A DNA stretch of 64,000 nt from Chitinophagales bacterium. GTDB lineage: Bacteria; Bacteroidota; Bacteroidia; Chitinophagales; LD1. Within the stretch, counting starts at the first letter, position 1; every line of letters starts with the position of its first letter. Positions 7,026 through 60,763 of the stretch are shown one piece after another. The position numbers and the translations under genes are program-made. The notes under the pieces are model-generated. The model saw only the letters and a program-made list of their open reading frames with translations. It did not search any database and was not told where the DNA came from. The stretch covers positions 268,997-332,996 of the forward strand of contig JAXLUO010000002.1 of NCBI GenBank assembly GCA_046329495.1, in the 5' to 3' direction.

Positions 7026-7220
7026 CTTGTAAAGTTCCTGCTGCGCAATGATAGAGATTTAGGCCCGGATTACGGAAACGGACCTGCCTTTTGTCCAGAA
7101 TTGTGGCCGTTGTCCTGCAAAATTTACGCCTGCACTATAACCTTTTTCATGTATGGCCGTATTAACAATTGGTTGAACGAGAGAAGGAACTCGTTTAGCC
7201 GGATAAAAACGGAACCCGAC

Positions 7221-24100: not shown

Positions 24101-27100
24101 AGCCGCTGATAGTGCTTTGCTACAACAATCACTATACTACACGCTATTAGTGGAAGCCTACGATTCTATTAACCAAAATTATTATCAGCAAACCATCTTC
24201 TATAACTCTCCGCAGCCTGGCTTCGCCTCCTTTAGTAATCTGCCGCCTTCCGTATATCACCTTAACCTGCATCATGGCAGTTGCGACAGTACAAGAATTC
24301 GTATTGACCTTCGTTCGTTTACCTATGATGTAAACCAACCTGAAATTTATTGCAACCACCCCGATTCGCTCATCACCACCCTAACTTTTGGAACTCCTCC
24401 GCTTACTTACGAATGGCAAGCTACGTTACTTGACACCAGTATTTATGAATTGGGCATTGGGCTTAGTACAATTGTTATTGACCGCCCGGGCACCTATTAC
24501 CTAACCATTAGCGATACTAACAATTGCCAAAAAACCGATGTACTGGAGATTGACGGTTCTTATAAAGTACATATCGACTCCGTGCAGGAAAATATTTACC
24601 CATGTAATGGAATGGATAATGCTACAAGTGCAGCTGTTTACTTTTCGCAGGGCAATGCACCTTACAATTATTTATGGAGCAGTGGTGAACAAGGCTTTAT
24701 GGCCGGCAACATTGTTGACAGTATTGGCTGGGTAATAGTTACAGATAGGGATAACTGTCGCGATTCGATGTCCTTTATAAACACAAAGAAGCCGGAGATG
24801 GTTATTACCGATTCTATAACCGATAGCCGATGCTTTAACACAAACGATGGAGCCATCAGTCTGCTTATTACCGAAGGGTACGCGCCTTATTATGTGCAAT
24901 GGTCGGATGGTTATATAGATGCTGAACGAACTTACCTTGCTGAAGGGGCCTATTTATATACCGTTACAGATGACCGGGGCTGTATTGCCCAAGGCAGTGC
25001 AATTGTGCATGCTCCCGATTCAATTGTTGTAACCTATACTACCACTGCAGCACATTGTATTGGCAGCGATGGTGGGGCAACAGTTACAGCAAACGGAGGA
25101 ACCGGTTTTCTGAGCATTTACTGGCAAGACGGATCAGTGGATTTTAATCGCAGCGACTTGCCTGCCGGTTCAAATTCCTTTGCTGTAGTAGACCAAAATG
25201 GTTGTCAGGTAGATGTCTTTATCAATATTGATACCATAAACAATTTGGCGGTAAGTATAACCAAACAGGATATTACCTGCTTTGGAACTAATGATGGCAG
25301 TTTAACGGCAACTGCAACCGGTGGCCAGGGTACCGTCAATTATGCCTGGAGCAGCGGCGATTTTGGTTATACTATTCCTAATGCCCCTGCAGGATTTTAT
25401 GAAGTTACCGCCACCGACAACACCGGTTGTTCCGCTACGGATACTGCGAGCATTTGGGATCCGGAAGAACTTAATTTTACTGTTGATACAAATGGGGGGC
25501 TGTTCTGCCATGACGATAATGCTTATATAACCTTTTATCCGTACGGAGGAACGCCACCGTATTATAATGCCGGTTATACCTATCTGCCGGCAGGCGATAA
25601 TGTATGGACCATTACCGATGATCATGGTTGTACTGCTACCCAAAACATCTCACTTTCAAACCCGGAGCCTCTGGAGTTCACTGCCTATGTATTCCGCCAG
25701 CCCGATTGTAATAATCCAGATGGGGTTATTACCGCTATAGCCTCGGGGGGCAGAACCGATTATGCGCTATATTTAGATAACAACTTCCAGGGTTATTTTA
25801 ATGACTCTCTGCAAATTAATGCATCTCCGGGTCCACATGATCTTGAGATATGGGACAATCACGATTACGGGTGTTATGCCTATGTACATGTGGATGTAGA
25901 TACAACAGGTGGAACTAACGGTTATGCCGTAACCCACAACCCAACCTGCCAGGGCCTTAGCAATGGCAGTATTCAACTGGTTATGACAGGAGGTATTCCG
26001 CCTTTTGAAGTAAACGGCAATTACTTTGCTTCCTCTTATACCTACAATAATTTGCCACAAGGCAGTTACACCTATACAGTTTACGATGCTGCAGGCTGCC
26101 AACATACCTTTACGCAAACCCTAACGCAACCGTCCACTTTAACAGCGGCGATTGATACAGGTTTGGGCATACCGTGCGGAGGCACCCAAATAAATGTGCA
26201 CATAACAGCAGCGGGCGGCACCCCACCTTATACCGGCGACGGCTACTTATTACAAGGTGCAGGTCCGTACAATATGGCTGTATCCGACAGTAATAACTGC
26301 GTGGTCCAACTCAATTATACCCTTTCAGAACCCACACCATTGGTAAGTACGCTTAGTCTGGTAGCTCAACCAAGTTGCATTACACCCTATGGTGCCGTGC
26401 ATATAAACACAACAGGAGGACATCCACCTTATAATAGCGGCTTTGCGGTTTATCCGTTGTATACCGATAGTATAACAATTGGAGGACTTCAGGCCGGCAA
26501 CCAACAGATCATTGTTACCGATTCAACTGGTTGCATCTGGGATGGAAACATGTATATTAATACTTATGAACTGTTGCAACTTCACCTAACGAATCATAAT
26601 CCTGAGTGCCATGCAATATCTTCGGGTAGTGTAACGGTTGACATTGATCACGGCACCTCTCCTTTTAGCCTCAACGGAGCTACATTTATTAGTACTTATA
26701 CGATCAGCAATCTCGATTCGGGAAGTTATACCTATACCATAACCGATTCAGCCGGTTGTCCGCAAACTATTCAATTCAGCCTGGATGATCCATCGCCTGT
26801 TGTTGCCGCCTACAATATCACGGAGCCTATCCATTGCACGGGCGATCAGGCAACCATTGCATTTACGGCAAGTGGAGGCACACCACCTTATCAAGGATTA
26901 GGCACCTTTACGTATGGGGCAGGGTTTCACCAATATACCCTGATGGACAGCCTGGGTTGCACGGCTCAGGTATCATTCAACCTAACTAATCCCGCTCCGT
27001 TTAGCATTGATACAGATGCTACACAACCTACATGCACCAACCCGAAAGGCACATTAACGCTCCTTCCGTCAGGTGGACAAAGCCCATATTATGTGCAAAC

Positions 27101-28475
27101 TAATAATGGCACCCTCAGCTTTAATTCTACCGCTACACTCGATCTTGCGCCGGGCATTTACAATATTGCAGTACGCGATACACTGGGCTGCGTAGTGAAT
27201 ACTTCGGTGAATATGCAGCAACCTGCTCAGGTTTTCGCTACAGCACAAGCCACGGACCTGAGTTGCTACCAAAATCATACAGGCGTTATTACCATAAATG
27301 TGCAGGACGGTGAAGCGCCGTTTACTATAAACAATGTTCAGTTTACAGGCAGCACCAGCTTTAATAACCTTAACGCGGGCACTTACACTTATTTAATTAC
27401 TGATGCAAAAGGATGCACCAAAACAGTTACAGCTACGGTTAACCAACCTTTGCCGCTTATCATAGATTCAGTGCATCTGGCAGCATTAATTAGCTGTAGC
27501 CAAACCAACGACGCAGCAATTGAAATATTTGCAGAAGGCGGAAACATTCCATACACCTATGGTATTAACGGGCCCGTATCAAGCACCCAGCAATCATCCT
27601 ACTTCAATAATCTTAGCGCCGGAACCTATACAGCCTCAATCGTTGACAATAAAGGTTGTTCGGCGGTAACCGGGTTTGAGGTGCCTGCGTTTGAACCGCG
27701 CACCTTTGATGTGCAGGTGGATACGGTAACCTGCCATGGCGGAACCAATGGTGCAATACGTATATATCCGCATCCGCCCGACGCCAACCAGTTTATGTTT
27801 AGCATAAACGGAGGGCCTCCGCAGGTATATAATGTGTTCTATGACCTTTCAGCAGGCTCTTACGCCATCCTTATCACCGATAACCACAATTGTCAATACA
27901 ATGTGCAGGCCAATGTTAGTGAACCGGATAGCTTTGATGCACGCGTATGGCTGAATGGCGATTTGTTGCCGCAGGATTCAACCCTGTTGGATGAACGACA
28001 ATACGCCGATTTTGTAAAAGTAAGCACACACCCCTGGGAGGTAAGTTTCTCGCCTACACAATCTGTGTTAATCAATTCTGACACACTGGTTGAAATTCAA
28101 CCCCGTGAAACAATTACGTATAGCGTAGTGGTTTATAAAGACTCAGCCGATCATGATTGCTATGTTGCTTACAAAGGTGTGATTGCCGTGCACCCCATTG
28201 CCGCTATCCCAAACCTTGTAACACCGAATGGCGATGGGTTTAATGACCGCTGGGAGATTGACCTCGATAAATTCCCGAATGCCGTAGTAACCATCTTCGA
28301 CAGATGGGGCGAGATTGTGTTCGAGTCGCAAAATTATGCCAACGACTGGGCAGGCACGTTTAAAAACACCGGCCGCAAGGTGGCGGATGGTACCTACTTC
28401 TACATTATGAAGGTGCCTTCGCAAGGAAACAAGGTCTACAAAGGAGACATCAACATTCTTAACTCAACCAACTAA
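21162..28475 (+). CDS. giant surface protein: N-terminal SBBP beta-propeller repeats, Cys-rich middle, SprB-like repeats, T9SS type B C-terminal domain
   Basis: Signal peptide is MKHVYLLRFALLLPLLNICISG. At least five repeats resemble FGG..nDeG..I....dG.fITGyt.S.nFP (about 22050-23150). SprB-like units (C.G..dGai....GG..PY) run from about 24800 to 27900. The C-terminus reads IPNLVTPNGDGFNDRWEID...IFDRWGEIVFES...DGTYFYIMKV. Confidence 0.85.
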   Translation: MKHVYLLRFALLLPLLNICISGTAATHALNNLFFDNRGQVSTPENQPVTNVLCYAQTDGMGLYITSTGYSIVTRCNENNGTRYNRVDFTFANMHLQKEQVIFTAGDFPSLNFYNGDLKIEAIKTSDRILIRNVYPGIDWVWRFDASGKPKHEFAVNYGADASQIKYTVTGADALQKENYLEYGNQYLRIKEGPVTLQQLNDDYTDALLVQGNSISYKIPEKLKEGGYTIDPPLELIWSHGIDTLKTTFRRIVKDSIYRTISTGFSADYNLPAFPQLSGSYVSATRVNRDVVIMKTDYRQNLIWCTFFGGANNDEGNSITTTPDGLFITGYSESWNFPISTAGNYTQLVSLNGRDAFIAKFDNEGRWKWSTGYGGIGLEEGMDIKYLNGKVYVAGYTSSDNFPVLTKAGAYNKTAPLTANYDGFLLEFDTACYRQWGTCFGSSGDDYFSALYVDVTGIYTTGFSSAADTANIPLLPLAGAYYQPTHQKREVILQKFNLNDTLEWSTYFGAEESDIAASIKRNEHGLFICGKTNSADLPVQDQLNGNYFQDINNGGYDGFVARFDPVTLQKKYCTYYGTGGDDGLSDLSYDDLDNTVFTGYTNSTVPVVNYLSEYFHQDVSAGGYDGIVLGFDTLQRLHWATNFGTDGNDWGHGVLCILPCITDVVGEGLYNYGQERIGGTYLSSGCSGYLCTKFSSNGVSNRFLNQSCVLTGGNFPGTGGNLCPYYLNFQALIPLKNTCPDQCNGKAMIDTSNIGGCPPYQINWSNGDSGLGDSALCENYWSEVQDAAGQSRKIYGRFNVLRVSSPPNVYTTCEDTADWKQYIHIEGGGPPYILEFRGTSNNDCPTTAFFAIYDTAGCVVSHSMQWFRQNRGIHGYFNMQQACQLWISADLYSGQCINLSNSATWNYIIISGEDTVRKPFVNTTQGVFALQPEIGKKYYGYLDMGDCISFLDSFLLFDSIRYQVQYTRACHANDGGMTITVAADSALLQQSLYYTLLVEAYDSINQNYYQQTIFYNSPQPGFASFSNLPPSVYHLNLHHGSCDSTRIRIDLRSFTYDVNQPEIYCNHPDSLITTLTFGTPPLTYEWQATLLDTSIYELGIGLSTIVIDRPGTYYLTISDTNNCQKTDVLEIDGSYKVHIDSVQENIYPCNGMDNATSAAVYFSQGNAPYNYLWSSGEQGFMAGNIVDSIGWVIVTDRDNCRDSMSFINTKKPEMVITDSITDSRCFNTNDGAISLLITEGYAPYYVQWSDGYIDAERTYLAEGAYLYTVTDDRGCIAQGSAIVHAPDSIVVTYTTTAAHCIGSDGGATVTANGGTGFLSIYWQDGSVDFNRSDLPAGSNSFAVVDQNGCQVDVFINIDTINNLAVSITKQDITCFGTNDGSLTATATGGQGTVNYAWSSGDFGYTIPNAPAGFYEVTATDNTGCSATDTASIWDPEELNFTVDTNGGLFCHDDNAYITFYPYGGTPPYYNAGYTYLPAGDNVWTITDDHGCTATQNISLSNPEPLEFTAYVFRQPDCNNPDGVITAIASGGRTDYALYLDNNFQGYFNDSLQINASPGPHDLEIWDNHDYGCYAYVHVDVDTTGGTNGYAVTHNPTCQGLSNGSIQLVMTGGIPPFEVNGNYFASSYTYNNLPQGSYTYTVYDAAGCQHTFTQTLTQPSTLTAAIDTGLGIPCGGTQINVHITAAGGTPPYTGDGYLLQGAGPYNMAVSDSNNCVVQLNYTLSEPTPLVSTLSLVAQPSCITPYGAVHINTTGGHPPYNSGFAVYPLYTDSITIGGLQAGNQQIIVTDSTGCIWDGNMYINTYELLQLHLTNHNPECHAISSGSVTVDIDHGTSPFSLNGATFISTYTISNLDSGSYTYTITDSAGCPQTIQFSLDDPSPVVAAYNITEPIHCTGDQATIAFTASGGTPPYQGLGTFTYGAGFHQYTLMDSLGCTAQVSFNLTNPAPFSIDTDATQPTCTNPKGTLTLLPSGGQSPYYVQTNNGTLSFNSTATLDLAPGIYNIAVRDTLGCVVNTSVNMQQPAQVFATAQATDLSCYQNHTGVITINVQDGEAPFTINNVQFTGSTSFNNLNAGTYTYLITDAKGCTKTVTATVNQPLPLIIDSVHLAALISCSQTNDAAIEIFAEGGNIPYTYGINGPVSSTQQSSYFNNLSAGTYTASIVDNKGCSAVTGFEVPAFEPRTFDVQVDTVTCHGGTNGAIRIYPHPPDANQFMFSINGGPPQVYNVFYDLSAGSYAILITDNHNCQYNVQANVSEPDSFDARVWLNGDLLPQDSTLLDERQYADFVKVSTHPWEVSFSPTQSVLINSDTLVEIQPRETITYSVVVYKDSADHDCYVAYKGVIAVHPIAAIPNLVTPNGDGFNDRWEIDLDKFPNAVVTIFDRWGEIVFESQNYANDWAGTFKNTGRKVADGTYFYIMKVPSQGNKVYKGDINILNSTN

Positions 28476-28485
28476 ACGGAGCAAC

Positions 28486-30030
28486 ATGAAAAACATTCAA
28501 ACTTCGATTTCGGTTTTAAAACCTTTGCAGTTGGTTGGCAGCATGTTCTGCTTGCTGGTACTGCTCAGCGTTTCTTACAGCGCCTCAGCACAACAAACAC
28601 CTTTGTTCAGTGCTTACCACTTTAACCGCTTTCTCATCAATCCCGGTTTTACCGGTATTGATAATGAATACCGCGGCTTTGGTTTTTACCGCACGCAATG
28701 GGTGAATATGCCGGGGCAACCCATTACAGGTGGTGCTACTGTTGAAGGTTCGTTCTGGAAGGATCGTATTGGTGCGGGCATATTCGTGTTGAATGATAAG
28801 ATCGGCATTTTTAATAGAACCAACGTTGCGGCATCCTATGCACAAAAAATAAAGTTTGCCAAGGATCATCAAATAGCCATTGGTGTGCAGGGCGGCGCCT
28901 TTATCAATCAAATTAACTTTGGTGCTGCCAACGCCAAGGATTACAACGATCCTACAATAGCACTCTCTAAACCAACCAAAATAGTATTCGATTTAAACAT
29001 TGGGCTTAGTTATAAGTGGAAAGGTTTACTGGTAGGTTTTGCCGTGCCACATGTGTTACAACCCGATGCAAAATACCCCGCTAATGGAAATGATGCACGC
29101 TACCAGTATGTGCGTCAGTATAATGCCTTTGCGCAATATCGTATTAGCTTACTGAAAGGTAACTTTAATATTACGCCAACGGTAATGATGCGGAAAGCTG
29201 CCGCCAGCGGCTATCAATTCGACGGAACCTTATTGCTGGACTACAAGAACCTGGCCTTTATAGGTGCCGGATACCGTAACTCGTTTGGTGTAATTGCTAT
29301 GGCGGGGGTTAACATTCTAAACATGTTTACCGTGGCGTATGCGTTTGATTACACTACACAACGAGTATTAAACGGACAAGTAGGCGCTACACATGAAATA
29401 ACTGCAGGCTTCCATATCCCAAGCGATTTTAAACGCAAGAAGAAAGAGGATACGCAAGATTTGGTAAATGCCCAATTAGCAGAAGACCTTTCGCGCCGGA
29501 ACGATACCTTGTTAGTTAAACTGCGTATGGCTAATGCAAAAGCAGAAACTGCGAAAAAGGAACTGGCGGCTACTAATAAAGAAAACGACAGTCTTCGCCG
29601 CGAGGTTCAAACACTGCAGCAAATTGCAGGTGGTTTATTCCCTGACAATCGCCCTATAGACAACATGAGTAGCCTTGAATTAAACGAAAAGGTTTACAGC
29701 TTGGATAAGATTTACTTTGCGCCTAATGAATTTGTACTGTTGCCCGAAAGCCGCGAACAGCTGGATTCGCTTACTAACTTCTTAGCTCGATTCCCGGCCA
29801 CCGAGATCAGTATAAGTGGCTATACGGATAATACAGGTGGCGATGAATTAAACCTGAAACTAAGCGAGAGCCGTGCTAAATCAGTTGCTGAATACCTTAT
29901 TAGCAAAGGTATCGCTAAAAACAGATTGAGCTATAAGGGCTTCGGAAGCGCCAACCCGCGTGCAAGCAACAGCACACAAAAAGGCCGTCGTTTAAACCGT
30001 AGGGTAGAATTTACTATTACTAAAGAGTAG
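28486..30030 (+). CDS. PorP/SprF-family T9SS outer-membrane protein fused to a coiled-coil linker and OmpA-like peptidoglycan-binding domain
   Basis: N-terminus QQTPLFSAYHFNRFLINPGFTG... is typical of PorP/SprF. A heptad-like Lys/Glu/Ala linker follows (about 29440-29640). The C-terminal OmpA_C pattern reads ISISGYTDNTGGDELNLKLSESRAKSV..YL...G......GFGSANP......GRRLNRRVEF. The gene starts 11 nt after the giant gene. Confidence 0.85.
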   Translation: MKNIQTSISVLKPLQLVGSMFCLLVLLSVSYSASAQQTPLFSAYHFNRFLINPGFTGIDNEYRGFGFYRTQWVNMPGQPITGGATVEGSFWKDRIGAGIFVLNDKIGIFNRTNVAASYAQKIKFAKDHQIAIGVQGGAFINQINFGAANAKDYNDPTIALSKPTKIVFDLNIGLSYKWKGLLVGFAVPHVLQPDAKYPANGNDARYQYVRQYNAFAQYRISLLKGNFNITPTVMMRKAAASGYQFDGTLLLDYKNLAFIGAGYRNSFGVIAMAGVNILNMFTVAYAFDYTTQRVLNGQVGATHEITAGFHIPSDFKRKKKEDTQDLVNAQLAEDLSRRNDTLLVKLRMANAKAETAKKELAATNKENDSLRREVQTLQQIAGGLFPDNRPIDNMSSLELNEKVYSLDKIYFAPNEFVLLPESREQLDSLTNFLARFPATEISISGYTDNTGGDELNLKLSESRAKSVAEYLISKGIAKNRLSYKGFGSANPRASNSTQKGRRLNRRVEFTITKE

Positions 30031-30446: not shown

Positions 30447-31901
30447 CTATTTCAGGTTATGGAAGAGGCTGCGATAGAATGTGATTGTTTCCATGAAGGC
30501 CTGCTCACCAATGCGTTCGTTAATACCATGTATGCTACCCACCTGGTCCTTATCGAACCGGCACGGGAAGAAACGATACGTGTTCTCCGTTATATCCTGA
30601 AAGTGTTTAGAGTCCGTACTACCCAACATTAAAAAAGGTGCCACCATGGCATCCGGGAACACCTCTGCCGCTGTTTGCTGTAATAACTTAAACCCATAAC
30701 TATCCGAACTGCTGTTTTTGCTTGGTTCGTACAACTCGCCGGCCTTAATAACCACCGAAGTATCATCAATTAATTTGGTAATGCGTGCAAGCACGTCTTT
30801 CGTGGTTTCATCGTTCAACACCCTGAAGTTAACCTTTGCACTTACCAGGGTAGGGATGACGTTCTCCTTTAAACCTGCATTAATAACCGTGGTTACATTG
30901 GTAGTACGCAGCAGTGCCGAGCCTTCCGGCGACTTTTCGTATTCACGCATTATTACCGGGCTAAAGAACCAACGATTGGCGAAAACGGTCTTTAATGGGA
31001 AAGGCATTTCAGGACCAATGAAGTTCAAAAACTCTTCTACGGGCTCTACCACCCTCCCCTTCTCAGGATTATCATGTATACGCGTGAGGGCCGCCATTAA
31101 AACATCCAGTGCGGTTTTCTTTGCAGGGCGGCTGCTGTGCCCGCCGGGTTTATTCACGGTAAGCTCCAATGTAACATAGCCTTTTTCGGCAGTGCCGATA
31201 AGAGCTACAGGTTTGCTCATATGCGGCACCATACCACTGCTTACAAATCCACCTTCATCCACATAAAACTCAAAGCTTATATGTTGTTGGCGAAAATAAT
31301 CAGCAATACGGGCTGCACCTAAGTTACCGCCCACCTCTTCATCGCTACCGAAAGCAAAGTAGATAGTGCGCTCAGGCACCACATTAGCCGCTACATCTGC
31401 TTTCAATGCTTCCAGCAGGGCAATTAAACTGCCTTTATCATCTAAGGTGCCGCGGCCCCAGATAAAGCCATCAGCCCTTTCTCCGCTAAAAGGTGCATGC
31501 AGCCATTTATCTCTGGTTGATTCCTCTACCGGAACTACATCCAGATGCGCATAAAAGATAACCGGTTTAGCACTTGTATTCTTACCCTGCCACTTCAGCA
31601 ACAAGCTTCTGCCTGCTATAACCGTATCTTCCAGTTGTTCAAGCACCGGCGCATAGGTGTTATGAAGAAAGCGGAAGAACGAATCGTACTCGGCACGGTT
31701 CAAAAGCGCAGTATCATCGTACGATACAGTTTGGATCCTGACAGCCTGTGTCAAGTGGTTCAATGCTTCCTCATCTAACTTAATAACAGCAGGTGGCTTG
31801 TTCGACTGTACCTGCCTGCCTTTATAAGCAGCTGTTTTTACGGCCATTACTGCCGCCAGTACAAGCAACAGCAAAAGCACAGCGAGTAATACTTTTTTCA
31901 T
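30447..31901 (-). CDS. M20-family metallopeptidase (secreted or membrane-anchored)
   Basis: ATG at 31901 gives MKKVLLAVLLLLLVLAAVMA; the listed ORF starts earlier at a TTG. Motifs are YAHLDVVP, WGRGTLDDKG and GSDEEVGG. Confidence 0.8.
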   Translation of the reverse strand: MKKVLLAVLLLLLVLAAVMAVKTAAYKGRQVQSNKPPAVIKLDEEALNHLTQAVRIQTVSYDDTALLNRAEYDSFFRFLHNTYAPVLEQLEDTVIAGRSLLLKWQGKNTSAKPVIFYAHLDVVPVEESTRDKWLHAPFSGERADGFIWGRGTLDDKGSLIALLEALKADVAANVVPERTIYFAFGSDEEVGGNLGAARIADYFRQQHISFEFYVDEGGFVSSGMVPHMSKPVALIGTAEKGYVTLELTVNKPGGHSSRPAKKTALDVLMAALTRIHDNPEKGRVVEPVEEFLNFIGPEMPFPLKTVFANRWFFSPVIMREYEKSPEGSALLRTTNVTTVINAGLKENVIPTLVSAKVNFRVLNDETTKDVLARITKLIDDTSVVIKAGELYEPSKNSSSDSYGFKLLQQTAAEVFPDAMVAPFLMLGSTDSKHFQDITENTYRFFPCRFDKDQVGSIHGINERIGEQAFMETITFYRSLFHNLK

Positions 31902-31980
31902 CAATAGGGGGTTTGTGCTACAAAGTAAAAACAAACAAGGAAAAACAGTAAGCCCAGTGTTTCTAATTGCTACACAAACT

Positions 31981-34900
31981 TTAATTAACCCTGCGCCAGA
32001 AAATTACGGCCTGGTTAACAGGGCGTGTTTCGTTGCTGTTATTACCGCTGGTTACTGCACCGGCGCTAAAGCTAAACGTATGCGTATGGTCGGGCACGGT
32101 ATGCGTATGTGCACCTGCTGTTGAAGTGGCACGTTGCTTAATAAAGTGTCGGTGCGCATACATATTAACTGAGTGACTATGGTTACCATCGGTTGAGATG
32201 GAATGCGTATGCCACAAACACCCGTCGATCATACGACCCATAAAGTTACCGGCGGTGTATTTGCCGTTCCAGCCATTGCCGCATGTAGTAGCATCATCGT
32301 CTGTCCACCCTGCGGCCTTGCAGTTGTCGGATAAATTATCATCAAACGGAATATATACGTTACCCGGACCATTATTCGGACTACCTGTGCTACCGCCGTG
32401 GTTGTGCGAACCGGCTGCAGTTGTTCCAAGTGTGGTATACTCCTGGCTTGGGTTACCGGTAGTACCGGGATTACCTCCCCACCAAAATGCCCAATCGCTT
32501 AGTGTATTGCCGTTGCCATCTCCGTTGCCTGCCGAGGTAGTGTAATCGCGGCTATCGTCATTACTCCACCAACCGCCCCAGTTGTGACTATGGTCGCCTG
32601 CTGAGCTGGTGGTTAAGGTGCCTGAACTATTAAGCGTACCGGTAACGGCGTGCGTATGGTCCTGGAAGGCATGTTGCTGTACGGTACCTGTCAGGTTAGA
32701 GCCACTCAGCACATTCGCTGCCCCCCCCCGTGCGCGGATAAATTCACCGTTGTTTATATCGGTGTATACCCAGTTAGTGCAGGGATAAATGGTGTTGGGG
32801 TTTGCTGCATTATACCACTGTATGTAAGTAGCACCAATTGGTGGTGTATTTACATTTTGCCAGCAGGTACCGTTAAATACTTCTACTGCACCCAGCGTTG
32901 TATTAAAACGAATTGAACCAATTGGCGCTCCGGCAGGTTGTTGCGCCGTACTGCCATTTGGCAAACCAATGGCACTGGTACTATTCACTTCGAACGATAC
33001 TACGGGTGTGGTGGTATTCAACCCTACATTGCTGCCGCTTTGGAACAATATGGAGTTACACATATCGGTTGGCGAAGTAAACATGGTAACATACCCGCTG
33101 GCAGCACTTGCACAAATAGTACCGGGGCCTGTAGCACCCACCGAACCTGTAGGGCCGGTAATACCCTGCAACCCTGTAGCACCTGTTGCACCGGTGCCTC
33201 CGGTGGCTCCTGTATTGCCTGTGGCACCTGTAATACCCTGTATACCTGTTGCACCCGTAATACCTTGTATGCCTTGCGGACCTGTATCACCTGTTGCGCC
33301 GGTAGACCCTGTATTTCCCTGCGGGCCTGTAATGCCTTGTATACCTTGTGCGCCTGTGTCGCCGGTTGCACCGGTTACACCTTGCATACCTGTAGCGCCG
33401 GTTGCGCCTGTAATACCCTGTATGCCTTGCGGACCTGTATCACCCGTATTACCGGTTGCACCGGTAGGCCCTGTATTTCCCTGCGGGCCCGTAACACCCT
33501 GTGCACCTGTTGCGCCTGTGGCTCCTTGTTGTCCGGTAGCTCCTGTTATGCCTTGCAGACCTTGAATACCCTGAGGACCTTGCGGGCCTGTTGCACCATC
33601 TAATCCATTAGCACCTGTGGGGCCTTGCGCACCTGCAACACCTTGTGGACCTTGAATACCCTGAGGACCTTGTGGGCCTGTTGCGCCATCTAATCCGTTA
33701 GCACCTGTTGGGCCTTGCGCACCTACAACACCTTGGGGACCTTGAATACCCTGAGGACCTTGCGGGCCGGTGGCACCATCTAAACCATTAGCACCTGTGG
33801 GGCCTTGCGCACCTGCAACACCTTGCGGGCCCTGAATACCCTGAGGACCTTGTGGACCCGTTGCACCGTCTAATCCGTTTGCACCAGTAGGGCCTTGCGG
33901 GCCTGCAACACCTTGCGGGCCTTGCGGGCCTGTTGCGCCATCTAATCCATTAGCACCAGTGGGGCCTTGCGCACCTGCAACCCCTTGTGGACCTTGAATA
34001 CCCTGAGGACCTTGCGGGCCTGTTGCACCATCTAATCCATTAGCACCAGTGGGGCCTTGCGCACCTGCAACACCTTGCGGGCCTTGAATACCCTGAGGAC
34101 CTTGTGGACCCGTTACACCATCTAATCCATTAGCACCGGTTGGACCTGCAACACCTTGTGGGCCTTGTAAGCCTTGTGGCCCCTGGGGCCCTGTTGCTCC
34201 ATCTAACCCATTTGCACCGGTAGGGCCCTGAGGTCCCGCAACTCCTGCAGGACCTTGAATACCTGCTGCACCCTGCGGACCTGTATCACCTGTTGGTCCG
34301 GTTGCTCCACCCCCTACACCGGTTGGGCCGGTTGGGCCCGTAGGTCCTTGCAGACCAGTGGCACCCGTAGTACCGGGTGCGCCGGGCAAACCTGCCGCTC
34401 CGGTTGGGCCGGTTGCTCCATCCAAACCATTTGTGCCAGTGGCACCGGTTGCTCCGGTTGATCCTGCTATGCCTTGTGGTCCGGTATCCCCGGTAGCACC
34501 TGCCGGACCGGTATTACCTACTACACCTTGCGGACCCGTATCACCTGTTGGGCCTGTGGCTCCGCCCCCTGCACCAGCAGCACCTGTAGGGCCGGTTGGT
34601 CCTGTTGGGCCTTGTAGACCTTGTGCACCCGTATCACCTGTTGCACCCTGTACACCAGCCATACCTTGCGGGCCTGTATCGCCTGTTGGGCCTGTTGCTC
34701 CACCACCAGCACCTGCTGCTCCTGTTGGGCCTGTAGGTCCAGTTGGGCCTTGTAAACCTTGCGCACCGGCATCACCGGTTGCACCTTGCACACCTGCAAC
34801 ACCTTGCGGACCGGTGTCGCCCGTAGGACCTGTAGCGCCACCACCGGAACCCGCGGCACCTGTTGGGCCCGTTGGTCCGGTTATACCTTGCATACCCTGT

Positions 34901-35643
34901 GGCCCGGTATCGCCGGTAGCGCCCTGCACACCTGCAATACCCTGAGGCCCGGTATCCCCGGTTGCACCTGTTATGCCCTGTAAGCCTTGCGGGCCGGTAT
35001 CACCGGTTACACCTTGTGTACCTGCTATACCCTGCGGACCTGTATCGCCCGTTGGGCCTGTTGCGCCACCACCTGAACCCGCGGCGCCGGTTGGGCCGGT
35101 TGGGCCTTGTAAGCCCTGTGGGCCGGTATCGCCGGTTGCACCTTGTAAGCCAACTGCCCCTTGCGGACCCGTATCACCAGTTGCACCAGCATTACCTGTT
35201 GCACCGGTAACACCCTGCAAACCTTGCGGGCCGGTGTTACCTGTAGGGCCGATGGCTCCTGCTAATCCTGTAGCACCGGTTGCTCCCGTATTGCCGGTAG
35301 GGCCGGTGGCACCAGCCACACCCTGTGAACCGGTGGCACCGGTGGCACCTGTAGCGCCTGTGGCTCCTGCTGTGCCATTACCTGCGCACAAGGAATTCCA
35401 CTGGCCGTTATAGTAAAAATAACAGCCAACTGTAACATCATACACCAATAAACCGGGTGCCGGTGTGGCAATAGCCAGGCGATTGGCGGTAGTTAACCGA
35501 GGTGCCAGGAAACCTTTATTAGTAGAAGACAGATCCAATATAGCTGAAGGATCGGGGGTAGTGGTGCCGATACCGACATTACTTTGCGCTGCAAGTTGCA
35601 TCACACATAGGCATAACAATACACTGAGTAGGGTATAACGCAT
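31981..35643 (-). CDS. secreted collagen-like triple-helix-repeat protein with His-rich (HxH) fibre-tip-like C-terminal domain
   Basis: Signal peptide is [21 protein letters not shown] roughly 65-aa NVGIGTTTP module comes first. About 750 aa of Gly-X-Y follow (about 33121-35382). Then come a second NVGLNTTTP module and 226 C-terminal aa with eight HxH motifs, ending [16 protein letters not shown]. No T9SS C-terminal domain. Confidence 0.85.
32721..32729 (-). repeat. G9 homopolymer (C9 on the plus strand) inside the collagen-like CDS
   Basis: ctg-ccccccccc-gtg on the plus strand. On the coding strand it reads cgg ggg ggg gca, encoding R-G-G-A of [10 protein letters not shown]. It is the longest G/C run I found in the window. 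Confidence 0.95.
33541..34290 (-). repeat. tandem 90-bp coding repeats (8 units, with one 72-bp and one 81-bp variant)
   Basis: Unit starts are marked by taatcc/taaacc/taaccc at 33601, 33691, 33781, 33871, 33943, 34033, 34123 and 34204. The units encode [30 protein letters not shown] with few substitutions. Confidence 0.9.
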
Positions 35644-35794: not shown

Positions 35795-36304
35795 CTATTC
35801 GTTTTGCTTTTGCTCTTTCCCTATTTCCGATAACTTTTTGTAAACGGTATGCGTTTTAGGCAAAGCAGCTCGTGAGAACCGGCGCACGTTTAAATCGTAC
35901 TCCTCTTCCACTGCCACCAGCGAATCGCCATCAAGTGCTTCATCCAGTTGGGCCACCTGTGGTGTTAGGTCTACCTCCTCTGCCTCGTTGATAATTGGTG
36001 CAGGTTCTTTCTGATCGGCTAACTCTTCGTCGGAAATTATCTGTTGCTTCTCTTCCTTTTGCTTGTGCTTTGTTTCCGTTTTTGCAACCGATGCAACCGG
36101 GCTTGATTCCTCCACCGGCTCGGTAGTTATTAAGGCCGCTGTATGCGGTGCGCAGGTTTGTACTGCGGGCTTTATTGGCAACTCATCTTCCTGAGAATAG
36201 ATTTTATCAATCTCGCCACTGCGGAACATCTTTACAAAATCGCTAAGGCCGGCGCCGACGGCGAGTAACATCAGGCCCAGACTAACATGCAGGATGGTTT
36301 TCAT
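35795..36304 (-). CDS. hypothetical exported/anchored acidic protein
   Basis: N-terminal hydrophobic segment MKTILHVSLGLMLLAVGAG, then a Glu/Asp/Pro/Lys-rich low-complexity body. No motif recognised. Confidence 0.45.
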   Translation of the reverse strand: MKTILHVSLGLMLLAVGAGLSDFVKMFRSGEIDKIYSQEDELPIKPAVQTCAPHTAALITTEPVEESSPVASVAKTETKHKQKEEKQQIISDEELADQKEPAPIINEAEEVDLTPQVAQLDEALDGDSLVAVEEEYDLNVRRFSRAALPKTHTVYKKLSEIGKEQKQNE

Positions 36305-39369: not shown

Positions 39370-42300
39370 TTAGCGCATGATGGTAACCGTACCGGTAACT
39401 TCTTTCTCTACACCATCGAAGTAAGTAACCACGATTTTGTAAACGTAGGTATCATCCGGACAGTATTTACCGTCTTTGGTTCCATCCCATCCTGTTCCAT
39501 GGAAGCCGTTAGCCTGATTAGCGTTGCTGTAAACGCGTTCGCCCCAACGGTTAAAGATGCTTACATCCAGTTTAGAAGCACCTAAGATGTCGAATTCCCA
39601 GGTATCGTTCAATCCATCGCCGTTAGGTGTAAAGGCGGTAGGGATAAACTTAGCAGGTTCGTTTAACACCGTGATTGTAACGGTATCGCTGGCAAAACAA
39701 GAGTCGGCATTCATAACAGTTACCATGATAGTGGTAGTTGTTTTAGGAGCCGCTAATGGGTTCGGACAGTTGGTTTGGTCAGTACAGTTGTTGAATACGA
39801 TTACTGAATCAGGATTCCAGAAGTAGTTGAGTATTGCCGAAGTGCTGGTTGTTGAAGTAACCAGTTGCGTTTGCATACCTGTTAGGATGGTTTGCTGGCT
39901 TACGCTTAAATCAACCGATAACTGGCTTGGCGAAGCAACAGTAAACTGCGCGTTGCCCTGGCAGCCGTTAACATCGGTAACCAGTATTGCATAGTTGCCC
40001 GGAGCCAAACCGCTGAAGGTTGTATCGGTTTGCACAATGCCGTTTAACATGTAGTTGTAAGGGCCTTTGCCGCCGGTAGTAGAAAGCGTAACTAAACCTG
40101 TTGCTGTATTAAAGCACTTAGAGCCTGTTGCATTGGCAGTAACCACCAGTGCGCTTGGGTCAACCAGGGTATCGGTAACAGCGGTTGTACAACCTTTGCT
40201 ATCGGTTACGGTTAAGGTGTATTCACCGGCGCTTAAACCACTAACCGAAATACCTGTTTCAGTTGGTGTGGTGTTCCATGCATAGGCATAAGGACCAACA
40301 CCACCGCTAACCGAAGCTGTTACGCCACCCGTGCTGCCGCCGTGGCATATTGGGTTGTAAGTGGCAATAGCCGCCAGTATTTCGCTACCCTGGCCAACGG
40401 TGAACGACTTGCTGTTTTGGCAATTGGTTTGGTCGGTAACGGTAACGGTGTAAGTGCCCGCAACAATGCTGCTCAGATCTTCGGTAGTAGCTGTATTGCT
40501 CCACAAGTAGGTGTAAGCAGGGTTACCACCGGTTACGGTAATATCAATGGCAGCGGTAGCAGCACCAAAGCAAAGTGCATCGGTAGTAGTACCGTTTATA
40601 ACAATCTGCGTAGGTTCAGTTAACTGGATGCTATCGTAGGTGAAACATCCGTTGCTATCGGTTAACTGCACGGTGTATTTGCCTGGGCCAACACCATAAA
40701 CTGCCGAATCAGTATCAAAGGTATTCCACAGATAGTTGTAAGGCGTAGTACCACCTGCAGGCACGGCGGCTACGTGGCCGTCCTTAGCACCAAAGCAAGT
40801 TACATTGCTGCCCACCACATTTAATGTGAGCGGAGCCGGTTCGGTTACCACATATAAAGAAGCTACCTGACAACCATTAAAATCGGTAACAGTAACGTTG
40901 TAATTGCCACCTGATAGGTTACCGATATCCTCGGTGCTTTGCAGGGTATTCCACTCAAACGAGTAAGGAAGGGTACCACCGTAAGCAGTAATATCCAGGA
41001 AGCCATCCTTTAATCCGGCACAAGTAACGTTCTTAATGAAGCCGGAAGTAACCAACGGATCCGGTTCAACTGTAGTAGCCGAATCGATGCGGCTGCAGCC
41101 TTTTGAATCGGTAATGGTTACGATATAAGTGCCGGCACCAATACCTGAAATATCTTCCGACGTAGCGCCGTTGCTCCAGTTATAAGCGTAAGAAGGTGTA
41201 CCGCCTGAAGGGATCAGATCAATAGAACCGTTCAGATCACCAAAGCATAACGGATCGTGTACTACGAAGTTGGCTGTAATAACAGATGGGTTGATAATAA
41301 CCACTGATGTAGATGCTGAACAAGCGTGTGCATCGGTTACAGTTACTGCGTAAACACCGTTTTGCAGGTTGTTGAGGTCCTCGGTAGTTGCCCCGTTGCT
41401 CCATGCATAGCTGTATGGAGTAGTACCACCTGTAACTGTTAAGTCGATGGCGCCGTCGTTGGCATTGTAACAACTAATGTTAGTGATGGTAGTTGAAAGC
41501 GCCAATGGAGCAGGTTCGCTGATAAGCACTGAATCGCGCTTATCGCAACCATTGGCATCGGTTACAATTACATAGTATAAACCACCGGCCAGACCGCTTA
41601 CATCTTCCGAGCCGTTGAAATTGCTCCACAGGAAGGTGTAAGGTTGTGTGCCGCCTGTTACTGTTAAGTCAGCAGCACCATCAGCCGCACCATTGCAGCT
41701 TACGTTAGTGCCAACTACTGAAGTAACAATAGCTGCAGGTTCGGTAACCGTAAACGATTGAGTAAGTGTGCAACCGTTTACATCGGTAACCGTAACTGCA
41801 TAGTTGCCGCCGCTTACGCCGTGCACATCTTCATTTGTAGTGCCGTTACTCCATGCAAAGGTGTAAGGGAACACGCCACCGTTTACTGTAATATCTACCG
41901 AGCCATTATTGCCGCCATTGCAGGTTACATTCTGCACGGTGGCATTCAGCACCATAGCTGCAGGCTGGCTAACGTTAAACGAAGCCGTTGCACTGCAACC
42001 GTTTACATCGCTAACCGTTACGCTATAAGCGCCGGCGCTGATGCCGGTTAAGTCCTGTGTATTAGCTGCGTTGCTCCAGTTATAACCATAAGGCTGATTG
42101 CCACCGGTTACTGTAATATCAATAGCACCGGTTGAACTACCGTTGCAAAGCACATCGGTAACCACACCGGTAATAACCAATGGTAAACCTTCGTTAATTA
42201 CAACACTGTTAGCCGCTGTGCAGCCGTTGGCATCGGTAACAATAACGGTATAGGTACCGCCGGTAACGCCACTTAAGTCTTCGGTAGTAGCACCATTGCT

Positions 42301-45300
42301 CCACAAATAAGTGTAAGGGCTAACACCACCACTAACGGTTAAGTCGGCAGCACCGTTTGCCGCACCCGGGCAGGTAACATCGGTTTTGGTTATAGAAGTT
42401 GTAATAGCAGTTGGCTGATTGATAGTTACCGATAATATAGCGGTGCAAGCATTTGCATCGGTTACGGTAACATCATACGTGCCTACGGTTAAAGCATTCA
42501 GATCTTCGCTGGTAGCACCGTTGCTCCATATATATGTATACAGCGGTGTACCGCCAAACACATTGATATCGATAGAACCGTTATTGCCACCGTTGCAGCT
42601 AACGTCGGCATGGCCGGCTTCTACCACAACTAAAGCCGCAGGTTGTGTAACGGTTGCACTGGCCGTAGCTGTGCAGCTATTACCATCGGTAACAGTTACG
42701 GTATACGTACCGGCAGCAAGGCTGTTCAGATCTTCGCTTACTGCGCCGTTGCTCCATGCAAAGCTGTAAGCACCTGTTCCGCCGCTAACTGATAAATCTA
42801 TTGCACCTGTTGTGGCACCATTACAAAGTATGTTGGTTACAGTTGTTGAAAGAGAAATTGCAGCAGGTTCGCCTACCACCACGCTGTTGGTAGCTGTGCA
42901 ACCGTTGGCATCGCTCACTACTACTGAATAAGTACCACCCCCTACATTAGATAAATCTTCGCTGGCAGCGCCATTGCTCCAGAAGAAGTTGTAAGGTGTT
43001 GTGCCACCGCTAACGGTAAGATCAACACTACCATTTGATGCACCATGACAAGTAACATCGGTAGCGCTAACTGATGTAGTTAAGGCAGCAGGTTCGGTGA
43101 TAGTAGCCGAGAAAGTAGCTGTGCAACCGTTGGCATCGGTTACTGTAAGATCGTAGGTGCCTGCGCCTAAGCCGCTCAGGTCTTCAGTAGTTGCACCATT
43201 GCTCCATGCATAGCTGTATAAAGTAGTACCGCCATAGATGTTTACATTAATGGCACCGTTGGCGAAGCCATTACAAGTAACATCGGTTTTGCTGCTAAGC
43301 ACAACGCTTAACGCAGTAGGCTGTGTAATAGTATAAGATGCAGTAGCGGTGCAGCCGTTACCATCGGTAACAGTTACGGTGTAAGTTCCTGCACTAAGGC
43401 CGCTCAAGTCTTCGGTAACAGCACCGTTGCTCCATGCGTAGTTGTAAGTTACTGTGCCGCCGCTAACCGATAAGTCGATAGCACCGGTAGAAGCACCATT
43501 GCATAAGATAGCTGTTACATTGGCTGAAAGCACTAAAGCAGCAGGCTCGGCGATAGTTGCGGTGTTAGAGGTAGTGCAACCGTGTAAGTCGGTAACTACT
43601 ACTGTATAAGTGCCCCCGCCAATATTGCTGAGGTCTTCGGAATTAGCGCCGGTATTCCACAAGTAAGTATAAGGTGTAGTGCCGCCGTTAACGGTAACAT
43701 CAATGGCACCGTTATTAACACCGTGGCAAGTAACATCGGTTGTAGCAACACTTGAAGTTAATTGAGCTGGTTCGGTTAATGTTTGACCGATGGTAACTGT
43801 ACAAGCATTGGCATCGGTTACTGTTACGGTGTATGAACCGGCATGTAAGCCCGATACGTCTTCGGCCGTAGTACCGTTGCTCCAGTTAAAGCTGTATGGC
43901 GGAACACCACCGCTTACGGTAATATCAATAGAACCTGATGAATCGTTATTACAACGCAGGTTGCTGTAAGAGGCAATGTTTAAGTATAAAGGCAGTGGTT
44001 GGGTTATAGTAGCACCTGCTGAAGTTGAACAACCTTTAGAGTCGATAATAGCCACATTGTAAGTGCCCGCAGTAAGATTGGTGATATCTTCGGTGGTAGC
44101 ACCATTGCTCCACGTAAAGCTGTATGGACCGGTGCCACCATTTACGCTGATGTAAATAGCGCCGGTGTTACCGCCATTACAAAGAATATTAGTTACGCTA
44201 TCGATAATAGCTGTAAGCAGGTTTGGCTGGGTAATGGTTACCATTACAAAATCAGTACAGCCTTTGCTATCGCGCAGGGTAACCACATAGTTGCCTGCAG
44301 CTAAACCTGTAAAGGTTGGTGAGCCCTGAAAGGTAACACCATTGATAGAGTATGAGTATGGAGGTATACCGCCGGTTAAATCAACGGTAACGCTACCGTC
44401 TAATCCGCCGAAGCAGGAAACGTTGGTTTGGTTAACCAGGCTTGCGGTTACGGCATAGCTGTTAGGAATGTTAACCTGCGAAGTATCGCTGCAACCATTC
44501 GCATCTACTACACCCACTACATAGTTACCGGCCTGTAAACCGCTGAACACATTGCCTAATTGATTAGGGCCGCCGTTCAGTGAATACTGGTAAGCAGGCA
44601 CACCGCCTGTAGCAGTTACTGTAATTGAACCATCGAATACGTTGGCGCAGCTTGCGCTTTGCACGGTAGTAGTATGGTCAAGCACCGGTGGTTCGTTAAC
44701 CGGCACACCGTTGATTGGTAACGAGATACAATTTAACGCATCGCTGATCATTGGATAATAGGTGCCTGCTGTTAAACCGGTAAACAGGTTTGCTGCCTGG
44801 TAAGTGGCTCCATTATCTATAGAATACGTATAACCGGGTGTACCGCTTCCGGCAGTTAAGGTTATAGTACCGGTGTTACCACCATTACACAGTACATCGC
44901 TTACGCTGATGTTACTTACAACAGGCAGCGGCGCCACCGTTACTGTAGCTGAACCCAGGAAGCCCGAAGTGCGCACACAACCGTTGGCATCGGTAATTTG
45001 GCTAAGCGTATAAGTAGTGGTTGTAGTAGGTTGAACCGTTACCGTGTAACCATTGCTGATGCCGGTGGCAGTAAGTACGTTGGTGCCGTCGGTATAAACC
45101 ACATCAAACGGACCGGTGCCCACTGCAAAGTTGAAGGTAATAACGGTATCAGTTCCATTACAGATGGTATTAGAACCATTAATGCTGCCGTTAGGCAACG
45201 GATTAACGTTAACGGTGTAAGGTGTGCACACGGTAGTGTTACACAAGCCTTCAGCACGTAAATAATAAGTAGTTGTAATAGTTGGAGATACGGTGATAGG

Positions 45301-60500: not shown

Positions 60501-60549
60501 AACAACACTAACAATCCCAGTAGCTTAGTGCTTAAGCAAAATTTCTCAT
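48511..60549 (-). pseudogene. second tandem giant SprB-repeat / type B C-terminal domain gene; 3-prime 3.7 kb intact, 5-prime 8.3 kb broken by many frameshifts (pseudogene or error-laden sequence)
   Basis: 48511-52269 is one clean 1252-aa ORF ending FTPNGDGLNDRFQFDI...TITLMR. It has no signal peptide and begins mid-repeat. Minus-strand ORF fragments from 52279 to 60501 all read as SprB/Ig-like repeats in shifting frames. ATG at 60549 gives MRNFA-stop, and a signal peptide (KLLGLLVLFAVLLPQATNAQ) continues in another frame. Confidence 0.7.
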
Positions 60550-60711
60550 GAGCAGAGCGTTGATTTATTCGGTGCTTTAGTCCCTTTTATCCCTTTAAAA
60601 TCAGGTATTTAAGAGGTGGGAAAAATAGGATGTTTAGAGGCAATTTCAAAGCAAATGCTCAAAAGATAAGAAACTGAACCAAATGATGAAAAGTCCTCCC
60701 CACCTACCTAT

Positions 60712-60747
60712 AAAAAACAAAAAACCCCGGTAAAACCGGGGTTTTTC
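60712..60747 (-). terminator. rho-independent terminator after the third tandem giant gene
   Basis: The ccccgg-taaaa-ccgggg core extends into A/T runs. The minus strand reads aaaaaccccggttttaccggggtttttt-gtttttta. Confidence 0.75.
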
Positions 60748-60763
60748 AACGTATTGTTAAGAA

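Follow-up and report, generated by a model that had tools for sequence, protein, structure and literature searches.

The gene described here lies on the reverse strand at positions 31981..35643 of a 64,000-nucleotide stretch of a Chitinophagales bacterium genome (GenBank assembly GCA_046329495.1, contig JAXLUO010000002.1, positions 268,997 to 332,996), which is called the window below. It encodes a protein of 1220 amino acids (aa) plus stop, which was assigned from its open reading frame (ORF) translation and Pfam matches as a collagen-like fibre protein with a phage-fibre-tip head. Five regions were distinguished along the chain, all on the reverse strand: a predicted Sec signal peptide (aa 1–19, 35587..35643), a small N-terminal NVGIGT module (aa 20–89, 35377..35586), a collagen-like region of 249 Gly-X-Y triplets (aa 90–841, 33121..35376), a post-collagen linker with a second NVG module (aa 842–929, 32857..33120), and a tip domain of approximately 290 aa (aa 930–1220, 31984..32856). 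A first-pass annotation of this DNA had recognized the signal peptide and the NVGIGT module, both of which are present, and its figure of about 750 aa of Gly-X-Y agrees with the 752 aa measured here. It had also described a C-terminal domain of 226 aa, which proved too short, as the non-collagen C-terminal region comprises 379 aa (842–1220) made up of a Cys-containing linker, the second NVG module, and the tip domain; the C-terminal end sequence it gave was likewise corrected from the translation. No identical protein was on record in an exact-sequence look-up of the fibre protein.

The tip domain, which was delineated by hhalign comparison with gp37 of phage T4, by PHROG matches, and by a chain of BLAST alignments, exhibits a short collar-like start (...FIRARGG), a needle containing His-x-His (HxH) motifs, a head (IPFDDN...), and a final strand. 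Eight HxH motifs were located, namely HTH at 996, HSH at 1018, HNH at 1080, HTH at 1145, HSH at 1155, HRH at 1164, HTH at 1179, and HTH at 1186, in the positions and order listed by the earlier annotation. The stretch bearing them (aa 996–1188, 32080..32658, reverse strand), defined by the motif positions and their mapping onto gp37, is predicted to hold axial metal sites. Nearly all His residues of the whole protein (16/17) are inside these motifs. When the 291-aa end domain was shuffled 200,000 times by residue, a mean of 0.93 HxH motifs and a maximum of 7 were obtained, and no shuffle contained 8. Such concentration of His was also observed for 110 homologues, in which 1466 of the 1529 His lie in HxH motifs; the His columns had 0–7 exceptions each among the sequences where the column is present, and none in 10 of the 16 columns. 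Two of the motifs, 1018 and 1164, are placed in two family-specific insertions that are missing from short forms having five HxH. One insertion (aa 1018–1082, 32398..32592, reverse strand) was defined from the indel blocks of an alignment of 22 family tip domains (alignment A2), ends with HNH, has a high content of Trp, Asp, Asn, and Gly, and may serve in binding a ligand or Ca.

The profile of alignment A2 was compared with T4 gp37 (aa 875–1025) by using hhalign, which gave a probability of 95.8%, an E-value of 7e-9, and a score of 63.5. The reversed gp37 scored 20.6, 20 residue shuffles scored 14.5 ± 3.0 (maximum 20.3), and 20 shuffles that preserved the HxH motifs scored 18.1 ± 3.1 (maximum 24.8), so that the real score was approximately 15 standard deviations higher than the last control. 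This indicates that the match to gp37 is not an artefact of composition or motif count. In the alignment, six of the eight HxH motifs of the query are in register with six of the seven in gp37 (996 to 883, 1080 to 915, 1145 to 966, 1155 to 980, 1179 to 989, and 1186 to 998). The flanks of the paired motifs are also alike, as in SAGDHSHSV versus TDGNHSHSV and GAHTHTV versus GAHTHTV. The query and gp37 further have a head segment, AWNGTGVGGNKM, in common, for which the gp37 head segment in the alignment is AWNGTGVGGNKMS, and the terminal strand of the query pairs with ENTVKNIAFNYIVRL of gp37. This terminal strand follows the pattern E-T/S-R-P-x-N, and alignment A2 shows no variation at its E, R, P, and N positions. 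Comparison with PHROG families gave a consistent result: all 22 tip domains matched phrog_34297, to which no function is assigned in that resource, 13 of them matched the tail fibre family phrog_2097 (best E 2.4e-9), and 6 matched the tail collar fibre family phrog_523 (best E 3.7e-8), while the remaining families matched were mostly annotated as tail fibre, tail, or tail collar.

A link to the second T4 fibre protein, gp12, was obtained through relatives of the query. A profile search against 1.84 billion representative proteins detected 244 relatives, of which P0137, P0144, and P0146 contain a Pfam Collar domain (E ~1e-23) directly upstream of the stretch homologous to the HxH region. The query tip (aa 54–286 of the domain) was aligned with P0137 (aa 217–420) by BLASTP at 2e-46 and 40% identity, with the blocks NWGGWW, IPFDDN, CGGGWNGR.T.GNF.GR, and HRHW in common, and the insertion of aa 1018–1082 is also present in P0137. 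In turn, P0137 (aa 116–230) was aligned with gp12 (aa 325–445) by BLAST at 5e-9, and this alignment ends at GSVQGHAITNH versus GEVQIQQMSYH(445). The C-terminal strands of the query, P0137 (ESRPANVNVLYII), and gp12 (ETRPWNISLNYII) are alike as well. This chain of alignments supports a putative correspondence of His996/His998 of the query to His445/His447 of gp12. In gp12, the three copies of His445/His447 together bind a Zn ion that lies on the threefold axis (PMC3004832), and seven iron ions are coordinated by the HxH motifs in gp37 (PMC11705849, PMC6116203); such HxH metal chemistry is described for gp12, gp37, and pyocin fibres (PMC3004832, PMC6116203, PMC11705849). The resemblance of the tip to the gp37 and gp12 fibre tips that the first-pass annotation had proposed was hence borne out by the hhalign E-value, the six aligned HxH motifs, and the P0137 chain. 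The protein is hence best read as a trimeric rod whose tip is metal-stapled, for which the support is homology and not structure. As a separate observation, P0137 and P0146 are Bacteroidota-type proteins of 938–967 aa that contain NVGIGT modules, a canonical Collar, the HxH insertion of the query, a long fibre of NVGIGT repeats, and Peptidase_S74 as an intramolecular chaperone at the C-terminus. P0137 starts with a signal peptide, and the two proteins represent a second kind of phage-fibre-like cellular protein that is probably secreted.

The N-terminal end of the fibre exhibits the features of an exported protein. The hydrophobic core of the signal peptide reached a Kyte-Doolittle maximum of 3.1 over 9 residues, and the predicted cleavage site reads ...QLAA|QSNVGIG, having a small residue at −1 and Gln at +1. 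This agrees with the Q-rule of Bacteroidetes, in which cleavage by signal peptidase I leaves an N-terminal Gln (PMC5837995, PMC10653852). The same [A/S/G]-Q was found directly before N(V/I)GIG in 136 of the 146 family members with complete N-termini (A in 102, S in 19, and G in 15), with the Gln at a median position of approximately 20 (Q20 in the query); the assignment is a heuristic pattern check. A lipoprotein was considered and rejected, as Cys11 and Cys13 are both unconserved and placed inside the hydrophobic core with no lipobox. The following module (aa 20–89), which was defined from homologue annotation and from AlphaFold2 (AF2) and Foldseek results, is small and β-rich and contains Cys74/Cys86. 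Homologues in which this module is 44–79% identical to that of the query have PF26696 PTL_trimer as their precomputed Pfam annotation here, ahead of Collagen. The AF2 model gave a predicted local distance difference test score (pLDDT) of 79, with a core above 90. A Foldseek search of this model against BFVD found 15 Caudovirales matches at E ≤ 1e-3 (best 5e-5, 34–50% identity), one of which is annotated as 'Collagen triple helix repeat'; an intramolecular-chaperone protein and tail fibre proteins fell short of this cut-off (E 5e-3 to 8e-3). All matches to PDB were sub-threshold, and included the CBA120 tailspike N-termini (E 0.05, probability 1.0), HylP, and the trimerization domains of collagen XV/XVIII. 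We infer that this is a small β-rich trimerization or docking module of the Pfam PTL_trimer type.

A module of the same kind was located at the other end of the stalk. The stretch of aa 842–929, identified by PHROG, PDB profile, and AF2 results, consists of a linker with Cys844/Cys862 and the second NVG module (approximately aa 871–929), over which pLDDT was approximately 80. Among PHROG families, 23 matched the second module (best E 2.6e-9), for the most part where phage proteins of ~340 aa have their N-termini, and the family profile matched Gp49 in PDB 9d83 (E 1.4e-4) at the motif SGTTAQRPIGVLTGTQHFDTTLGKPIWFNGTAWVD (GTTAQRP..G..FDTTLG..W). The collagen helix is thus flanked twice by the same kind of small trimer module. 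Four conserved Cys pairs were recognized in the fibre (74/86, 844/862, 927/955, and 1121/1142), of which 74/86 was conserved in 32 of 38 sequences and 844/862 in 42 of 49. The placement of these pairs beside both helix ends and in the head fits an oxidizing, extracytoplasmic location.

The stalk between the modules was identified from its Gly-X-Y runs and from the Pfam Collagen model PF01391 (E 1e-98, 323.5 bits versus a cut-off of 27.2). Its 752 aa form six runs separated by five one-residue breaks, each of which reads GGGA-T-GPT. The X position is occupied by Pro in 74 of the 249 triplets, and the Y position by Thr in 110 and Gln in 78, while the only charged residues are 25 Asp. Tandem Repeats Finder detected two arrays in the DNA of the stalk on the reverse strand: one with a 90-bp unit (30 aa) in approximately 8 copies (33551..34263), and the other with a 138-bp unit (46 aa) in 3.2 copies (34525..34971), each of which holds one Gly-X-Y break. 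The arrays, with 79–92% matches, carry the signature of a presumptive expansion through repeat slippage or recombination. The GC content is 54–58% locally at the gene versus ~46% in the flanks, which is ascribed to the Gly, Pro, and Ala codons of the repeats. A collagen triple helix rises 0.286 nm per residue, and the stalk would hence be approximately 215 nm long if it is triple-helical throughout.

The earlier description of the gene as an orphan did not survive the homology searches. The C-terminal 382 aa of the query gave at least 174 homologue protein clusters with E-values down to 1e-185, and the 120 best-scoring of them showed 43–71% identity. These clusters are named 'hypothetical' or 'collagen-like' and originate from metagenome bins of Chitinophagales and other Bacteroidia. 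A scan of one genome per species detected 78 genomic loci, all in metagenome-assembled genomes (MAGs) of Bacteroidota, which belong to Chitinophagales, Flavobacteriales, Sphingobacteriales, Cytophagales, Vicingaceae, and Crocinitomicaceae; several MAGs contain two copies of the fibre gene. The best locus, L008, was found in a Chitinophagales MAG from a membrane bioreactor, where the tip is 95% identical, the protein has 1269 aa, and the gene order is the same as in the window. The order of parts is constant in the family, consisting of a signal peptide, the N(V/I)GIGT module with a Gln ahead of it, Gly-X-Y, the second module, and an HxH tip that ends with E(T/N)RPxNxAVxFWRRxN. The length of the Gly-X-Y part ranges from 0 to ~790 aa and the number of HxH per tip from 4 to 10 (most often 5 or 8). 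Given this constant architecture, the stalk length is the main variable, and the window copy is among the longest stalks of the family. Nor is the design unique, as all four parts, collagen and non-collagen, have phage-fibre relatives and the N-terminal module already has a Pfam family (PF26696). No description of the family was found in the literature on PF26696/PTL_trimer or on collagen-like and tail-collar proteins of Bacteroidetes. Short-read assemblies evidently break at the Gly-X-Y repeats, and members with long stalks are thus probably under-represented in databases and the family under-counted. The sole public contig with an identical M20 peptidase, the protein encoded next to the fibre gene in the window, is a Logan contig of 2397 bp (L087, SRR26348419_429348), and it stops where the collagen-like gene starts.

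The route of the fibre to the cell surface was examined through the genes adjacent to its relatives. Neither a type A (Por_Secre_tail/TIGR04183) nor a type B (CHU_C/TIGR04131) C-terminal domain (CTD) of type IX secretion (T9SS) was detected in the query by Pfam (whole protein at E ≤ 1, C-terminal 382 aa at E ≤ 10) or NCBIfam (E ≤ 1), and an ad hoc CHU_C hidden Markov model detected none in 200 family members, in agreement with the first-pass annotation; the same CTD models did pick up the CTDs of neighbouring genes. That annotation had left export and anchoring unexplained, which still holds for the query gene itself, whereas the relatives offer a lead. Other lineages have 18 loci at which a same-strand gene for a type-B CTD protein comes next, which overlaps the fibre gene or is separated by no more than 16 nt in most of them and by 141 nt in one. 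One paralogue is placed between the fibre gene and the CTD gene in 3 further loci, and a PorP/SprF gene then follows in 9 of these loci. The 19 CTD proteins retained by a coordinate filter form one homology cluster, even when the last 90 residues are removed, and four CTD partners from different lineages matched TIGR04131. In Flavobacteriales, a six-gene order was recognized, consisting of two genes for PTL_trimer plus collagen, the HxH fibre, CHU_C, PorP_SprF, and another PTL_trimer plus collagen, which was backed by independent gene calls and precomputed Pfam labels. The fibre paralogues have the N-terminal module and the stalk in common and differ in their heads. Two Flavobacteriales MAGs contain operon-like clusters (L016, 2128–9112; L088, 3690–11406) with gaps of mostly 0–24 nt, in which 2–3 PTL_trimer plus collagen paralogues, the HxH fibre, a CHU_C protein of 404–416 aa, and PorP/SprF were observed. 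PorP-like proteins serve as anchors for CTD proteins of type B (PMC9143113). The adjacent CTD partner suggests partner-mediated export or anchoring in these relatives. Taking this anchoring together with the cluster, we infer that the N-terminal module may dock on the T9SS-delivered partner, by analogy with the docking of a phage fibre N-terminus on the baseplate.

The lineage of the window shows a different arrangement. In its 10 loci (the window, L008, L009, L010, L012, L013, L015, L017, L042, and L043), the fibre gene stands alone and is followed immediately downstream by a gene for a membrane-anchored M20/M28 peptidase, after which a DUF3467 gene is found in most of them (an ORF of ~100 aa in the window); this synteny with the peptidase gene is conserved in the window lineage only. 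The peptidase gene of the window was assigned by Pfam to 30447..31901 on the reverse strand, downstream of the fibre gene, and the gap between the two is 79 nt from the ATG used or 46 nt from an upstream TTG at 31934. The fibre–M20 arrangement may represent an operon or merely inherited synteny. The specific N-terminal region of the CTD partner was not found in the 64 kb, where only generic SprB/Ig-repeat matches in giant genes were obtained. A scan for sigma-70 promoters and terminators around the fibre gene gave counts no higher than the shuffle expectation; Bacteroidota promoters are outside the models used.

We consider it likely that the gene encodes a Sec-exported homotrimeric fibre, built entirely from modules of the phage tail fibre type and carrying a metal-stapled, ligand-binding tip, as a chromosomal gene of a Chitinophagales-like bacterium. 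Signal peptidase I would cut between Ala19 and Gln20, the N-terminal PTL_trimer-type module would then set three chains in register, with its second copy at the far end of the stalk, and the 249 Gly-X-Y triplets would form a triple helix of ~215 nm having five kinks. In the tip, the HxH pairs of the three chains are predicted to meet on the threefold axis and to bind Fe or Zn octahedrally as in gp37 and gp12, so that the tip would most likely be a metal-stapled trimeric needle with a small ligand-binding head at its end. The molecule may act as a long-reach adhesin or receptor-binding fibre, and its shared N-terminal module could dock on a T9SS-delivered partner, as judged from the clusters of the relatives. 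A broader proposal, which we offer tentatively and consider rather doubtful, is that phage receptor-binding fibres were domesticated in Bacteroidota into a widespread family of chromosomal appendages exported by Sec. Lacking an outer-membrane secretion signal of their own, these fibres would attach through the shared N-terminal module to a dedicated type-B CTD protein of the T9SS, which PorP/SprF would hold in place. They would have tunable stalks (0 to ~215 nm) and interchangeable heads, one of which is the Fe/Zn-stapled, gp37-like head, and would constitute a new class of T9SS-dependent surface fibre that is exported in a piggy-back manner or docked after secretion.

Several observations weigh against this explanation. 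The gp37 motif 929/931 has no His partner in the query, and the query motifs 1018 and 1164 sit in insertions without structural precedent. The hhalign comparison with gp12 alone aligned the last 18 columns only (P 0.04), which is the reason why the gp12 link was drawn through P0137. The Pfam Collar model PF07484 gave no match in the query (E ≤ 10) or in the 22 members of alignment A2 (E ≤ 1); since it does match in the relatives, the collar start of the query appears to be divergent and shortened. Scans of the N- and C-terminal pieces gave nothing with NCBIfam (E ≤ 1) or with a Pfam copy that does not include PF26696 (E ≤ 10 for the C-terminal 382 aa), and Pfam on the 22 tips gave non-significant matches only (Phage_fiber 0.38, Gp10_C 0.07). 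With HMMER profile searches of PDB, neither gp12 nor gp37 nor a further HxH fibre was reached. The AF2 monomer of aa 842–1220 was poor (pLDDT 62, predicted template modelling score 0.30), and Foldseek found nothing below E 1 for it in PDB; this outcome is uninformative, as expected of an interdigitated trimer. No T9SS partner adjoins the gene in the window, the fibre itself has no CTD, and every family member is MAG-derived.

An alternative is that the gene encodes a prophage or tailocin tail fibre, or is what is left of one after decay, so that its product would be a virion component. The phage relatives of every module (the gp37 tip, the PHROG tail fibre and collar families, and BFVD) speak for such an origin, collagen repeats are common in phage fibres, and the local GC rise would also fit, though the repeat codons account for it. 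Virion fibres are assembled in the cytoplasm, whereas the Bacteroidota-specific A|Q signal peptide pattern is present in nearly all members with complete N-termini. The window contains genes for shikimate, mevalonate, and polyprenyl synthesis, an exonuclease, a CHAD protein, an extracytoplasmic function sigma factor, an M43 peptidase with a T9SS tail, four giant SprB-repeat/CHU_C proteins, a PorP/SprF-OmpA fusion, the M20 peptidase, a DUF2306 protein, an NmrA-like protein, MGMT, and a cupin. Over its whole 64 kb, neither tRNA nor any gene for phage structural proteins, integrase, or lysis was found, which extends the earlier statement that phage genes are missing nearby. The homologues are neighboured by ribosomal protein operons, TamB, EF-Tu, and dnaN, without phage genes around them, and the order of genes is retained between the window and L008. 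A tblastn search with the tip gave no match in 50,697 GenBank phage records, and no relative was found in the 2.9 million contigs of IMG/VR; the operon-like cluster with T9SS genes in other lineages points the same way. A prophage origin is hence excluded for practical purposes, and a role as a virion component is highly improbable.

The two other explanations accept a cellular protein. In one of them, the HxH motifs are solvent-exposed metal ligands used for capture, sensing, or catalysis, and the fold of the tip is unlike gp37. Such exposure is compatible with the poor AF2 monomer, with the location of two HxH in insertions beside Trp/Asp/Asn/Gly-rich loops, and with the failure of HMMER and Pfam to connect the domain to gp12 or gp37. 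It is made unlikely by the order, spacing, and flanks of six HxH motifs, which match gp37 far above the HxH-preserving shuffles, and by the collar start and terminal ETRPxN strand that are also in common; near-complete conservation of both His in each pair is moreover the prediction for a buried six-His site. In the other, the fibre is confined to the periplasm or released to the medium, with a structural or other role lacking surface anchoring or adhesion. The missing CTD of either type in the query and the 200 members, the missing lipobox, and the isolated position of the gene beside a membrane-anchored M20 peptidase in the window lineage are in its favour. It is less improbable than exposed HxH motifs, although still not likely. 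The periplasm is a few tens of nanometres wide, and a stiff rod of ~215 nm would be hard to fit into it, as estimated from established dimensions. The proteins nearest to it in function are without exception fibres outside the cell that act in adhesion or receptor binding, and the type-B CTD protein that comes next in 18–21 loci, with PorP/SprF in 9, forms a known surface-anchoring pair (PMC9143113).

Compared with known systems, the closest relatives of the fibre by descent are the gp37 and gp12 tips, and its closest functional analogues are Lcl, Scl, and BclA. The T4 gp37 tip (PDB 2XGF), which is composed of a collar, a needle, and a head, shares with the query the homology over aa 875–1025, the six HxH motifs in register, the head segment, and the terminal strand, and both tips form the distal end of an obligate trimeric fibre, as presumed for the query. 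The two differ in that gp37 is a virion protein assembled in the cytoplasm, needs the chaperones gp57A and gp38, and has a β-structured shaft, whereas the query contains a signal peptide, four Cys pairs, a head approximately 45 aa larger, and two insertions with extra HxH; it does not have the HxH of gp37 at 929/931, and its metal binding and fold are predicted from the sequence only. The likeness to gp12/PF07484 lies in the order of the motifs P-x-G-x-I-x-x-W, D..G.F.R..G, G.VQ......HxH, and ETRPxN plus a β strand, while gp12 has one HxH versus eight in the query, in which the collar start is shortened and has no helix segment.

Legionella Lcl, Streptococcus Scl1/Scl2, and Bacillus BclA are secreted trimers with a collagen-like stalk, the repeat number of which differs among strains or species, and a globular ligand-binding head. 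NCBIfam models of Lcl and Scl matched the collagen part of the fibre paralogues, and BclA has Thr-rich GXT triplets like the query, for which PDB 1wck was a collagen-only match. Their heads are, however, unrelated (C1q-like in BclA, another C-terminal domain in Lcl) and contain neither HxH arrays nor phage-tip homology, and none of their anchoring or release routes (LPXTG, exosporium, or release by the type II secretion system) applies to the fibre. Phage collagen fibres, such as the hyaluronidase HylP of a streptococcal phage, and the Caudovirales proteins with the N-terminal module are alike in their BFVD and PDB matches to that module, but they are virion proteins without a signal peptide, and no phage protein with the whole fibre architecture was found in GenBank phages or IMG/VR. 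T9SS type-B cargo with PorP/SprF (the F. johnsoniae sprCDBF type) is comparable in that the fibre gene precedes TIGR04131/CHU_C in the 18–21 loci; the fibre differs in having no CTD of its own and is hence not canonical cargo, the window has no adjoining partner, and the docking is hypothetical.

To our knowledge, only fibres and spikes of phages and pyocins are known to carry the HxH metal-stapled needle. If the proposed explanation is correct, bacteria use such a needle on their own secreted fibres, and the family would plainly exemplify how a receptor-binding module of phages was exapted for cellular genes, here in 78 species-level genomes of Bacteroidota, all uncultured. It would also provide a testable route to a question of T9SS biology, namely how CTD-less proteins reach and stay on the surface, with the paralogues, the type-B CTD protein, and PorP/SprF as the handle. 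The stalk range of 0 to ~790 aa would serve as a natural series for relating reach to adhesion.

Further features were observed in the window. Upstream of the fibre gene, positions 35795–36304 on the reverse strand encode a protein of 169 aa, in which a single hydrophobic segment is placed at the N-terminus and the tail is acidic and of low complexity; it gave no Pfam or NCBIfam match, and the gene is kept at the same position in only 4 loci. Four intact giant genes for T9SS type-B cargo (SprB plus CHU_C, 1252–2999 aa) are located at 7101–14567 and 21162–28475 on the forward strand and at 39370–48369 and 48511–52269 on the reverse strand. The PorP/SprF-OmpA fusion (28486–30030) directly follows the gene at 21162–28475. 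The stretch of 52300–64000, to which the intact SprB/CHU_C gene at 48511–52269 is directly downstream, contains only short ORFs (91–259 aa), all on the reverse strand, and SprB repeats were detected in those at 54664–55443, 57928–58389, and 62875–63348. The stretch resembles a single giant SprB-like gene, over 11 kb long, that numerous frameshifts or stops have interrupted, which could be a pseudogene or the result of assembly errors.

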